Part shown: positions 8,859 through 13,390 of the stretch, piece by piece
How positions within the stretch are numbered: position 1 is the first letter of the stretch
Layout of the letters: each line of letters starts with the position of its first letter
NCBI GenBank assembly: GCA_029006755.1
Contig: JAQXGO010000104.1
Span: 1-55,955 of the forward strand
Direction of reading: 5' to 3'
Source: Clostridia bacterium
Lineage (GTDB): Bacteria > Bacillota > Clostridia > UMGS1883 > UMGS1540
DNA length: 55,955 nt
Notes under the pieces: generated by a model
Told to the model about the DNA's origin: nothing
Seen by the model: the letters and a program-made list of their open reading frames with translations, nothing else
Databases searched by the model: none
Made by a program: the position numbers and the translations under genes

Positions 8859-9117
8859 AAACGCAATGAAGAGAAGGAGTACCTGCAGGGAAGCTGATAG
8901 AGAGAAGCGGATGGTGGAAGCGCTTTAGTGGAAGTGTAGGGAAGTAGTCTTGGAGCTGCGAACCGAACAGGTCAACTTAGTAGGCTTCGACGGAATTCCA
9001 ACCGTAAAATAGGAAGCGGCATAATTGTGCTGCATGAGGTATATCAGTAATGCGGTATACGAAGTTAGGTGGTAACACGAGTCATTCGTCCTAATAGGAT
9101 GGATGACTTTTTATTTT
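8859..9117 (+). promoter_or_regulatory. T-box riboswitch leader, valine specifier (GUA)
   Basis: Stem I with AGAGA bulge and GGTGGAA apical loop; specifier GAA-GTA-G (GTA at 8944-8946); stem II GAA/AGTA; CCGTAA box; T-box AGGTGGTAACACG (9067-9079) able to pair with CGTCCT; terminator 9080-9108 followed by a T tract. Confidence 0.93.
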
Positions 9118-9129
9118 AAGGAGGAAAAA

Positions 9130-10755
9130 ATGGAACTTTTGACAAAGTACTTACCTAAAACCGAATTTGAAAGTTATGAAGATTTTAAGGAAAACTTCTC
9201 CTTAAAGGTGCCGGAAAGATTTGACTTTGCACGCGATATTGTCGATGAGTGGGCAAGGCTCGAACCGGAAAAACGTGCTCTCTTGTATTGTGATGATAAT
9301 GGAAATGACAGAACTTTTACTTTTAAGGATATTTCTATCTTATCCAAAAAAGCGGCATCCTACTTTGCGGAACAAGGAATAGGCAAAGGTGATAGGGTTA
9401 TGACGCTTTTAAGGAGGCGGTATGAATATTGGATTATCGCCGTTGCACTGCACCGCCTTGGAGCAACGCTTTTGCCGGCTTCTATTCAGTTGCGGGCAAA
9501 GGATATTGATTATCGCGTGGTGCAGGCGAAGGCAAAAATGATTGTTGCGGTGCAGGATGATTTTGTATGTCAGCAAATTTCTCAGCTGCAAAGTGATTGC
9601 AAGGTCGTTTTCGCCGGCGATCATAAGGTGGAGGGCTATCCGTACTTTAACGAACGCTATGAAAGCTGCCCTCTTTATGAAGAACCATGTACCGGGAAGA
9701 ATGAAGATGAAATGCTTATTTATTTCACCTCCGGTACTTCCGGATACCCAAAAATGGCCGTGCATAACCGCACCTATCCTTTGGGGCATATTTTAACAGC
9801 AAAATATATGCAGTGCGTGCAGAACAATGGATTGCATTTAACACAAGCAGATAGCGGCTGGGCAAAGTTTGGTTGGGGCAACATCTATGGTCAATGGATT
9901 TGCGGCAGTGCGATTTTGGGGTATGACCCGATTCGTTTTAGCCCGGAACGGCTCATGGAGCATTTGCGTGATTATAAACCAACTTCTCTCTGTATTCCGC
10001 CTACGATGTATAGATTTTTATTAAAAGCAGGTGTTGGCGCTGAACATCTCCAGTCGATTCAGTGGTTTTCCACTGCCGGAGAACCGCTTAGCGGCGAGGT
10101 AAACCGTGCATTTTATAATATTTGCGGCCGTTATATTCACGAGGGCTATGGTCAAAGCGAAGGTACACCGATTACCTGTTCCTTCCAGTGGATGGATATT
10201 TGTCCGTCCTCTATGGGAAAACCTTCTCCGCTTTATGATGTGGCAATCGTGAATAAGGAAGGAAAGCGCTGCAGTGAAGGAGAAGAAGGGGAAGTTGTTA
10301 TCTTCTCTGAAAAAAATAAGGTTGGCCTTTTGGATTATTATTATAAGGATGGGGAAAGAATAGATCCTTTGGAGGATGGCATCTATCATACCGGGGATAT
10401 GGCGTATGCAGATGAAAATGGCTATTACTGGTATGTAGGACGGAATGACGATATGATTAAATGTTCCGGCTATAGAATCGGGCCGTTTGAAATCGAAAGC
10501 ATTTTAAACACGCATGTAGCGGTTAAGGAAAGCGCTATTGTCGGTCGGCCGGACGAAATTCGCGGGCAGATTGTATGCGCGGTTGTCGTGCTTTCACCGG
10601 GATATACACCATCGGACGAGCTGACGCATGAATTACAGGATTATGTAAAGAAAATGACCGCACCCTATAAATATCCGCGGCGGATTGAATATGTAGAGCG
10701 CTTGCCCAAGACTACCTCCGGCAAGATTATTAGAAATGCACTGCGCAGCGAATAA
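9130..10755 (+). CDS. AMP-forming short/medium-chain acyl-CoA synthetase (resembles the Methanosarcina AAE/MACS subfamily)
   Basis: [12 protein letters not shown]-loop, [42 protein letters not shown]-terminus [21 protein letters not shown] at 9130 after AAGGAGG. Confidence 0.9.
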
Positions 10756-10771
10756 TAAAGGAGAGAAGAAA

Positions 10772-13390
10772 ATGCAGGAAATTAATAAAACTTATGAGCC
10801 GTCCAAAGTGGAGAAACGGCTGTATAAAAAGTGGCAGGACAATGGCTATTTTAGTGCAAAGCCGGATCCTGACAAGAAACCATTCTGTATTGTAATCCCA
10901 CCGCCAAATGTAACAGGACAGCTGCATATGGGACATGCACTGGATGAAACCTTGCAGGATATATTGATTCGATTCAAGAGAATGCAGGGATATAGTACAC
11001 TTTGGATACCGGGCACAGATCATGCCGGTATTGCAACGCAAATTAAGGTGGAAGAACATTTGCGAAAAACAGAGGGTATTACGCGCTATGATTTGGGGCG
11101 CGAAAAATTTTTGGAACGCGTTTGGGACTGGAAAAAGCAGTTTGGCGATAGAATCATCAATCAGCTGAAATCCCTTGGTAGCTCTTGTGATTGGTCAAGA
11201 GAACGCTTTACGATGGATGAGGGCTGCTCAAAGGCAGTGCGAGAAGTGTTCGTAAAGCTGTATGAGAAAGGACTTATTTATAAAGGAAATCGCATCATAA
11301 ACTGGTGTCCCCATTGCTTGACGGCGCTTTCTGATGCGGAGGTCGAATATAGCGAACAGGCCGGCCATTTTTGGTATATTAAGTACCCTGTGAAGGATGA
11401 AGATAACTATGTAATCATTGCAACAACAAGACCGGAAACCCTTTTGGGTGATACGGCTGTTGCGGTCAATCCTACAGATGAAAGATTTGCTTCTTTGGTG
11501 GGCAAAACACTTGTTCTTCCATTGGTAGGGCGCGAAATCCCTGTCATTGCAGATGAATATGTTGATAAGGAGTTTGGTACCGGTGCTGTGAAGATTACGC
11601 CGGCACATGACCCCAATGACTTTGAGGTTGGGAAACGGCATGGACTTGCGCAGATAAAGGTGTTAAATGATGACGCAACGATTTGTGATTGCGGCGGAAA
11701 ATACGCCGGAATGGATCGCTACGAAGCCAGAAAGGCTATGGTGGAGGACTTAGAAAAGGAAGGCCTTTTGGTTAAAATAGAGGAGCATAGCCACAATGTT
11801 GGGGAATGTTACCGCTGCGGTACTACCGTAGAGCCTTTGACCTCTGACCAGTGGTTTGTAAAAATGGAGCCGCTTGCAAAAGAGGCAATTCGCGTTGTGA
11901 AGGATGAAACGATTTCCTTTATCCCTGCTCGTTTTTCCAAGACCTATTTGAATTGGATGGAAAACGTACATGACTGGTGTATTTCCCGTCAGCTTTGGTG
12001 GGGGCATCGCATTCCGGCATTCTATTGCGAAAAGTGCGGTAAAATGGTCGTTTCACGCGAGGATCTGCATACTTGTGAATGCGGCGGCAAAATGAAACAG
12101 GAGGACGATGTATTAGATACATGGTTCAGTTCTGCGCTGTGGCCGTTCTCTACACTGGGTTGGCCTGAAAAAACAGAGGAGCTTTCCTATTATTACCCCA
12201 CAAGCGTTTTGGTTACCGGTTATGATATTATCTTCTTCTGGGTGGCTCGCATGATTTTCTCCGGCATGGAGCATATGCAGGCACCGCCCTTTAAAAATGT
12301 GTTTATTCATGGCCTTGTGCGAGATAGTCAGGGCCGCAAAATGTCAAAATCCCTCGGCAATGGCATTGACCCGCTGGAGGTGATCGACCAGTATGGTGCG
12401 GATGCGCTGCGCTTTACTTTGGCTACCGGTAATTCCCCCGGGAATGACATGCGCTTTTACATGGAACGTGTAGAGGCAAGCAGAAACTTTGCTAATAAGC
12501 TTTGGAATGCCGCACGCTTTGTTATGATGAATTTGGATATTGACACGGTAACAAGGCCGGAGAATCCGTCGATTGAGGATAAATGGATCTTATCGAAATA
12601 CAATACTTTGGTCAAAGAGGTTACAGAGAACTTAGAGCACTATGAAGTCGGCATTGCCCTGGGTAAGCTGTATGACTTTATTTGGGGTGTGTACTGCGAT
12701 TGGTACATTGAACTTACAAAGCCGCGCCTTTATGATGCGGAATGTGCGTCAAGAAAAGATGCACAGAATACACTGTGTTATGTATTGGCAGGCACTTTAA
12801 AAATGCTGCATCCCTTTATGCCCTTTATTACTGAAGAATTGTACTGTGCATTGCCAACCGATGATGAGAGCATCATGATTGCACCGTGGCCGACTTATGC
12901 GGAGGAGCTTTCCTTCCCGGCGGAGGATGCAGACATGAGCCTTATCTGCGATGCAATCCGCAGTATTCGAAACACGCGTGCAGAAATGCAAATTCCGCCT
13001 TCTCGTAAAGCAAGCCTTTATGTTGTGACGGAAGAGAAAGCGCTTTTCAGCAGCTGTGAAGACTTCTTTAAGAAGCTTGCCGGTGCATCCGAGGTGATTT
13101 TAAAGGATGAAAAGGATGCAGATTGTGAGAAAGCTGCAACAATTGTTGTAAACGGTGCAACCCTGTATCTGCCTACGGATCAGCTGATTGATAAAGAAAA
13201 GGAAATTGCACGCCTTACAAAAGAAAAGGAAAACTTAGAAAATGAAATCCGCCGTGTAGAAGGCAAGCTTTCGAATCCCGGATTCTGCAGCAAGGCACCT
13301 GCAAAGCTCGTAGAAGAAGAAAAGGCAAAAATGGAAAAATACAAGGAAATGTTAGAAAAGGTGTTGGCAAGTATTGAAAGCTATAAGTAA
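10772..13390 (+). CDS. valS: Valyl-tRNA synthetase
   Basis: [31 protein letters not shown]-terminal coiled coil; ATG at 10772 after AAAGGAG. Confidence 0.99.

Follow-up and report, generated by a model that had tools for sequence, protein, structure and literature searches.

The window, by which we mean the whole stretch of 55,955 bases of Clostridia bacterium DNA that was analysed, carries a single T-box riboswitch, as found by an Rfam scan of its full length. This leader stands before a gene for an AMP-forming acyl-CoA synthetase (ACS), which is followed on the same strand by valS and folC (Table 1). An initial annotation, made from the letters of this DNA, had proposed that the leader responds to valine and that the synthetase activates isobutyrate for valine synthesis, and the present analysis considers which amino acid the leader reads, to which gene it belongs, and what the synthetase would supply. 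The first gene had been assigned there to the AMP-forming acyl-CoA synthetases, and this is borne out by its Pfam domains, AMP-binding (PF00501, 183.7 bits) and AMP-binding_C (PF13193, 82.4 bits). Its start was set at the ATG at 9130, because AGGAGG stands before that codon; the listed open reading frame (ORF) opens at an upstream in-frame ATG at 9103. The gap between the ACS stop and the valS start measures 16 nt, and a scan of 8200-16300 found no terminator-like site in or near it, so that the close spacing of the two genes, as first described, stands.

Table 1. Position and supporting evidence for the leader, the genes behind it and two further features of the window.
Feature	Position	Strand	Basis
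Sigma-70-type promoter	8812-8840	+	TTGACA-17 nt-TATAAT; consensus matches 12/12
T-box leader	8857-9096	+	RF00230 end-to-end match, model 1-219 of 219
Specifier-loop GAA	8941-8943	+	RF00230 alignment
Specifier GUA, then purine G at 8947	8944-8946	+	RF00230 alignment
T-box bulge UGGU, then A at 9074	9070-9073	+	RF00230 alignment
Leader intrinsic terminator	9079-9119	+	14-pair stem 9079-9109, then T run TTTATTTT
AMP-forming short/branched-chain acyl-CoA synthetase (ACS), MacsMa type, 541 aa	9130-10755	+	Pfam, 3ETC
valS, valine--tRNA ligase, 872 aa	10772-13390	+	NF004349 1287 bits vs 704; TIGR00422 1176 vs 612
folC, overlapping valS end	13374-14672	+	TIGR01499 364 bits vs 163
rsmD	14663-15211	+	TIGR00095 178.5 bits vs 117.5
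pfkA, ATP-dependent 6-phosphofructokinase	15204-16169	+	NF002872 409.7 bits vs 253
tRNA gene	42766-42839	-	Rfam 65.6 bits; anticodon loop read as ACG (Arg) from alignment
Pyruvate:ferredoxin oxidoreductase (PFOR) type	52583-53269 onward		Open frame of at least 1146 aa, near window end

The leader scores 113.8 bits against RF00230, above the gathering score of 93 (E 1.9e-24), and the promoter, which is the top of 18 promoter-like sites in 8200-16300, lies 17 nt 5' of the match. The region of the terminator (9040-9125) folds at -24.2 kcal/mol with a z of -3.47, and the predicted terminator competes with the antiterminator that holds the UGGU bulge. The genome of the window carries a tRNA-Val(UAC) with an A-CCA end (A73), which thus fits both the GUA specifier and the UGGU bulge. 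When the window leader was aligned with 23 leaders found by Rfam 5' of homologous ACS genes, GUA and the following G were fixed in 24/24 leaders and UGGUA was likewise invariant. The base preceding GUA differs among the leaders of relatives (GAA-GUA, GAAG-GUA, GAAC-GUA), and a specifier frame shifted to AGU was ruled out, since this preceding base varies while GUA is constant in all 24. A profile built from these leaders recovered six more before ACS genes, four of them with GUA and two with GUC followed by A, giving a tally over 30 homologous leaders, window included, of 28 GUA and 2 GUC. As GUC is synonymous with GUA, the valine reading is kept in the two deviating leaders. Judged by this alignment, the specifier of the window leader is valine. 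The complete T-box with a GUA specifier and the UGGU bulge suited to A73 of tRNA-Val, both features of the initial annotation, are supported by the full-length match, the homologous leaders and the matching tRNA.

To which gene the leader belongs can be read from related loci. A homology search returned 80 of these, 56 bacterial and 24 archaeal; Rfam scans for ACS leaders covered the 56 bacterial loci and the leader profile all 80, and L013, with 152 nt of upstream sequence only, was left out of the counts. An Rfam T-box lies directly 5' of ACS at 23 of the 56 bacterial loci, namely at 12/13 of L001-L013, 7/13 of L014-L026, 4/15 of L027-L041 and 0/15 of the 15 more distant bacterial loci. The leader profile matches at 29 of the 80 loci and at the window, and all 29 fall inside L001-L033, a set of 33 loci whose ACS are 55-83% identical to that of the window. 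The pair valS-folC directly follows ACS in L001 and L003-L010 (tblastn), and also in L002 when a partial valS at the contig end is counted; in these ten valS-linked loci the ACS is intact and 76-83% identical. Adjacency of ACS and valS was found in 12/12 genomes of genera g1 (the window's own) and g9, and only in these genera does valS follow; the order first described is therefore conserved, and no one-off. At 19 other leader-bearing loci tblastn found no valS downstream of ACS, and the neighbours vary, T-box(Val)-ACS without valS being present in further Clostridia.

The valS-folC pair is kept across the family. In sister genera, five loci (L108, L110-L113) have valS-folC and no ACS, and none of the five shows a T-box within 1.5 kb 5' of valS (0/5); this survey leaves out L109, where the contig begins, and six valS loci that are fragmentary. 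Because the leader precedes ACS orthologues that have no valS behind them, and because sister valS genes have no T-box, the leader is, on this comparison, the ACS family's own, and the T-box-ACS unit came to lie before valS-folC in g1 and g9. The initial picture of a valS-type T-box into which an ACS had been inserted has to be reversed accordingly. Among the family loci compared, valS comes under tRNA-sensing control only where it is preceded by the ACS unit. At ACS orthologues L024, L026 and L029 (62-65% identical) no T-box was found; a promoter-like stretch and a divergent ORF occupy the upstream region, an arrangement suggestive of control by a protein rather than by the riboswitch.

The best solved relative of the ACS is 3ETC, the Macs of Methanosarcina acetivorans (MacsMa; E 3.4e-180, 603 bits, residues 3-539), and the next is a 4-hydroxybutyrate--CoA ligase at 7e-97. 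The 3ETC chain is offset by 23 from MacsMa numbering, the alignment being anchored at Gly459-Tyr460-Lys461, Arg490, Tyr525 and Tyr527. According to PMC10455477, whose numbering is followed here, MacsMa has Gly at the position of the Acs pocket Trp (Acs-Trp416) and uses the alternate Trp259 instead; it prefers 2-methylbutyrate and adenylates C3 to C8 acids. Trp259 corresponds to Trp249 of the ACS, and the Gly replacing the pocket Trp is kept (GQSE here for GQTE in MacsMa), as are Gly459, Tyr460, Arg490, Tyr525 and Tyr527. The two enzymes differ in that the ACS is bacterial, in that Lys461 of MacsMa is Arg, and in that the Trp preceding Gln in KYWQ of MacsMa is Met; moreover, the role of the window ACS is suggested by its T-box control and pathway context.

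Among NCBIfam models, the best for the ACS is that of MbcS, the methylbutyryl-CoA synthetase of Staphylococcus aureus (NF047394, 394.9 bits), under its cut-off of 850, so that the ACS is not an equivalog. It also stays under the cut-offs for acetate--CoA ligase (NF003313, 332 bits vs 729; TIGR02188, 236 vs 725). As described in PMC10026030, MbcS activates 2-methylbutyrate and isobutyrate, shows poor activity with isovalerate and butyrate and none with acetate, and it salvages extracellular isobutyrate and 2-methylbutyrate as CoA esters. MbcS feeds fatty-acid initiation, whereas the window ACS stands under an amino-acid-sensing switch. Because the MacsMa and MbcS relatives act on short branched acids, a short branched acid is most likely the substrate of the ACS as well, and its initial placement in the MacsMa-like subfamily agrees with the near full-length match to 3ETC. 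That this acid is isobutyrate rather than 2-methylbutyrate is proposed from the regulation.

The remaining steps of such a route were sought in the genome assembly of the window (1.78 Mb, 118 contigs, 98.25% complete). Neither ilvB (TIGR00118), ilvC (TIGR00465) nor ilvD (TIGR00110) gave a match in it (0 each), with control genomes positive in 14/14. The genome encodes a VorB-type 2-oxoisovalerate:ferredoxin oxidoreductase (VOR; 576 bits vs 399), with TPP-binding beta and gamma subunits directly after VorB and a P-loop NTPase 5' of it that is 43% identical to its counterpart in a cluster of genome G101, as well as one class IV aminotransferase, IlvE (505 bits vs 307). VorB is one of three POR_N proteins in the genome, the others being IorA and the PFOR of the window. 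By these assignments all three isobutyrate-to-valine steps (acid activation, carboxylation by VOR and transamination) are encoded and the standard route is not found, a combination that had been anticipated. No match to the BrnQ transporter (PF05525) was found in the genome, which has five matches to the PF02653 permeases, a family that includes sugar permeases too. The window PFOR is a likely source of reduced ferredoxin for reductive carboxylation. At L014 a 1173-aa PFOR lies 450 nt downstream of T-box(Val)-ACS. On another contig of the window's genome (C60, L093), positions 3231-6831 carry iorA and iorB (indolepyruvate:ferredoxin oxidoreductase) and, after them, a member of the methionine gamma-lyase family; aromatic amino acids could have an analogous 2-oxoacid route there.

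Antitermination by uncharged tRNA is the established mechanism of the T-box family, and the conversion of branched-chain acids to branched-chain amino acids by reductive carboxylation is biochemically known from rumen anaerobes. We propose, with a probability of roughly 70%, that the locus is a tRNA-Val-gated salvage system through which isobutyrate is turned into valine with reductive carboxylation as the key step. Under valine shortage, uncharged tRNA-Val(UAC) would pair with the GUA specifier and, via its A73-CCA end, with the UGGU bulge. The antiterminator would thereby be stabilised and, judging from the anatomy of the leader, transcription from the 8812-8840 promoter would pass the 9079-9109 terminator. 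The ACS would turn gut isobutyrate into isobutyryl-CoA at the cost of ATP, the VorB-type oxidoreductase, encoded elsewhere in the genome, would reductively carboxylate isobutyryl-CoA to 2-oxoisovalerate, and IlvE would transaminate 2-oxoisovalerate to valine. With valS and folC most likely on the same transcript, charging capacity would rise along with precursor activation. Since the acetolactate route (ilvB, ilvC, ilvD) was not found, salvage would be the only valine-making route of this organism, apart from uptake of valine or peptides.

The distribution of these genes in related genomes is consistent with this proposal. A survey of the order covered 87 genomes, the window's included, with an ACS homologue called at E <= 1e-100 and VorB at E <= 1e-80; an ACS homologue was found in 72 genomes, ilvC in 24 and VorB in 61. 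VorB is present in 56/63 genomes without ilvC versus 5/24 with ilvC, the two being nearly complementary across the 87 genomes, and ilvC is present in 15/72 genomes with an ACS homologue versus 9/15 without one. For example, all 21 genomes of family f1 other than the window's carry both an ACS homologue and VorB (21/21 each), with ilvC in 2/21. In g18 an ACS homologue is found in 36/39, ilvC in 3/39 and VorB in 34/39, and in g17 the corresponding counts are 0/10, 7/10 and 0/10. Where the ACS is at least 67% identical to that of the window (15 genomes), ilvC occurs once and VorB in all 15; likewise, the 33 genomes that hold L001-L033 include 5 with ilvC over its cut-off and 31 with VorB.

Physical clusters link the same genes. 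In 20 genomes of g18, coordinates place a MacsMa-like ACS on the strand of vorB, some 2 kb 3' of that gene. The cluster of G101 encodes on one strand a TIM-barrel-ACS fusion, an IlvE-like aminotransferase, a P-loop NTPase, a ferredoxin, VorB, VorA, VorC, an HTH-cupin protein and an ACS. In G093 a T-box is followed by an HTH-cupin-ACS fusion, a P-loop NTPase, a 68-aa ORF, VorB, ORFs of 274 and 179 aa and an amidohydrolase. There, the P-loop NTPase and the amidohydrolase were assigned by Pfam, VorB by the order survey and the ACS fusion by homology and ORF length; the 68-aa ORF stands at the place of ferredoxin and the 274- and 179-aa ORFs at those of VorA and VorC, all three assigned by position only. 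The specifier of the G093 T-box, read by eye against the stem, is probably GUA, a tentative call. On the contigs that hold the vor-ACS clusters of G101 and G115, the T-box matches lie far from the clusters, so that a T-box is not universal for the genes of this pathway.

Several observations weigh against the salvage proposal. First, g13 breaks the pattern, with an ACS homologue about 45% identical to the window's in 11/11 genomes, ilvC in 9/11 and VorB in 2/11; distant ACS homologues therefore need not serve an isobutyrate-valine route. Second, five genomes with T-box(Val)-ACS or an orthologue also carry ilvC, including cultured Desulforamulus aeronauticus DSM 10349 with locus L021, so that the unit is not strictly a replacement of the ilv pathway. 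The suggestion that salvage replaces the ilv route fits the genome of the window, where ilvB, ilvC and ilvD have no match, and does not extend to all carriers of the unit. Third, ACS, VOR and IlvE lie on different contigs in the window's genome, and a genome-wide T-box scan found none at vor or ilvE. Fourth, the ACS is under the curated cut-off of every NCBIfam equivalog, the characterised enzymes behind the substrate inference are about 50% identical to it or less, and MacsMa prefers 2-methylbutyrate, not isobutyrate (PMC10455477). Finally, related genomes are not independent, so that the co-occurrence counts overstate the support and are no statistical proof, and absence calls are soft for the metagenome-assembled genomes G001-G033, whose completeness is unstated.

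Four other accounts of the ACS were weighed. The first is that, like MbcS in S. aureus, it supplies isobutyryl-CoA or 2-methylbutyryl-CoA not for valine but as the primer from which branched-chain fatty acids are built. MbcS provides the top NCBIfam model (395 bits) and, according to PMC10026030, activates isobutyrate and 2-methylbutyrate for FabH; a genome without ilvBCD is also without the usual 2-oxo-acid source of primers. The MbcS score is, however, far under the cut-off of 850, a Val specifier in 30/30 leaders suits an amino-acid supply gene and not a lipid gene, and the neighbours of the ACS family at annotated loci are VOR and IlvE instead of fab genes. We consider this account unlikely, although primer and valine roles for isobutyryl-CoA could coexist side by side.

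The Val specifier is retained across ACS orthologues down to 55% identity, and a separate Ile (AUC) T-box before a paralogous HTH-cupin-ACS fits one acid per switch. Both facts make it improbable that the enzyme activates another acid (2-methylbutyrate, propionate or butyrate) with an indirect link to valine, even though MacsMa, the nearest relative that has been characterised, adenylates C3 to C8 acids with a preference for 2-methylbutyrate (PMC10455477) and no specificity-determining residues for isobutyrate could be derived. That the ACS serves the disposal of valine or isobutyrate, by detoxification or catabolism, and not synthesis, appears very unlikely: a gene for valine catabolism would need the reverse of induction by valine starvation, the thioester is made by an AMP-forming ligase at the expense of ATP, and the genomes that carry VorB are those without ilvC. 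What speaks for disposal is that VOR enzymes are reversible and run oxidatively in amino-acid fermenters. Val T-boxes before valS are common in Firmicutes and valS lies 16 nt after ACS here, but a plain valS T-box with the ACS as a passenger unconnected to valine is scarcely credible and already contradicted by the same leader before ACS at 19 loci without downstream valS (tblastn), by the absence of a T-box at 5/5 sister-genus valS loci and by an enzyme that is intact and 76-83% identical over ten valS-linked loci.

Further downstream, folC, rsmD and pfkA have ends that overlap the preceding genes, and the scan of 8200-16300 found no convincing + strand terminator upstream of 16169. Most likely valS and folC are on the same transcript as the ACS, and rsmD and pfkA, given their overlapping ends, may share it. 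The glycolytic gene pfkA would thus perhaps lie on a transcript that starts at the valine switch; the same gene order is found in L001 and L005. Upstream, the leader unit has a dCMP-deaminase-like gene and that of EF-Tu as neighbours. In one pig-gut metatranscriptome (X1, Logan contigs), fragments that depart from the window sequence at 0-3 letters each were found over ACS (9627-9867, 9876-10055, 10532-10778) and over valS (11926-12255, 12294-12515, 12667-12999). The contig that reaches the ACS-valS junction extends just 7 letters inside valS and does not bridge it, DNA carry-over is possible, and Logan contigs reveal neither transcript ends nor expression levels.

The valine leader is one of seven T-box matches in the genome of the window, read from Rfam alignments as Val, Ile (AUC), Leu (CUC, twice), Phe, Thr and Trp. 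The Ile (AUC) T-box (contig C70, L094, 9142-11133) stands before a fusion of HTH_3, Cupin_2 and a MacsMa-like ACS that is cut by the contig end. A second HTH-cupin-ACS fusion, 49% identical, lies at the very start of contig C52, where its leader is unassembled. On C70 as well, at 3687-8684, one Leu (CUC) T-box stands before genes for a divergent LeuA-like protein (468 aa) that reaches no isopropylmalate synthase cut-off, for an 831-aa protein in which a xylose-isomerase-like TIM barrel is fused to an acyl-CoA ligase, and for a 269-aa amidohydrolase. In G101 the TIM-barrel-ACS fusion adjoins IlvE and VOR, and in L011 it adjoins the Val ACS. For leuB and leuC the genome of the window gave sub-cut-off matches only, and the Leu operon of C70 may be an undescribed leucine-related route. 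The second Leu (CUC) T-box (contig C16, L095, 3340-4929) is followed only by short ORFs and by fragments of the TIM-barrel-ACS fusion (47-56% identical), and this locus may be a decayed copy or an assembly problem.

Three branched-chain switches, each driving an acid-activating enzyme, are what one would expect if every isoacid entered through an enzyme of its own. A wider reading, which we offer tentatively and at slightly less than even odds, is that this lineage makes no branched-chain amino acid de novo and would derive Val, Ile and probably Leu wholly from the isoacids of its neighbours, each route with its own tRNA switch and acid-activating enzyme, the valine switch having also captured valS-folC in two genera.

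Like other T-box leaders of Firmicutes, such as the Val valS and ilv-leu leaders, the window leader combines Stem I, a specifier loop, a UGGN bulge and a competing terminator, and it reads tRNA-Val and has valS under it. It differs from them in that its conserved first target is an acyl-CoA synthetase and not a tRNA synthetase, an amino-acid biosynthesis gene or a transporter, and in that valS is a secondary acquisition in two genera. A full-text literature search found no published T-box target of the acyl-CoA synthetase or isoacid-salvage type, an earlier listing being possible. The same three steps that were followed by labelling in rumen anaerobes in the 1960s-70s are encoded here. To our knowledge that labelling work named no genes or regulator, and candidate genes and tRNA-sensing control are proposed here; in the full-text literature search, neither genes nor regulation for the conversion of isoacids to amino acids were found in print. 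What is new is a target class for a known riboswitch and a proposed gene assignment for an old pathway, both the riboswitch class and the enzyme family being known. The genome of the window is also a clean example of dispersed pathway genes in which no ilv route was found.

Isoacids serve as feed additives, and many gut and rumen anaerobes need or profit from isobutyrate, 2-methylbutyrate and isovalerate. Where the conserved target of a T-box activates an acid, the leader points to the entry enzyme of the route, which the cell treats as an amino-acid supply gene. The system provides an enzyme that can be purified, an RNA switch that can be tested, and a genomic marker, T-box(Val)-ACS plus VorB in the absence of ilvC, from which a dependence of uncultured bacteria on cross-fed isoacids could be predicted. 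The capture of valS further indicates that a riboswitch unit is able to take over the control of an essential housekeeping gene. If the tentative reading of a lineage living wholly on isoacids were true, tRNA charging would be slaved to a salvage switch where valS-folC has been captured, perhaps along with rsmD and pfkA, and an undescribed leucine branch consisting of the LeuA-like enzyme, the TIM-barrel-ACS fusion and the amidohydrolase would be implied. The genes and the control circuit behind the isoacid requirement of gut and rumen anaerobes would then be in hand.

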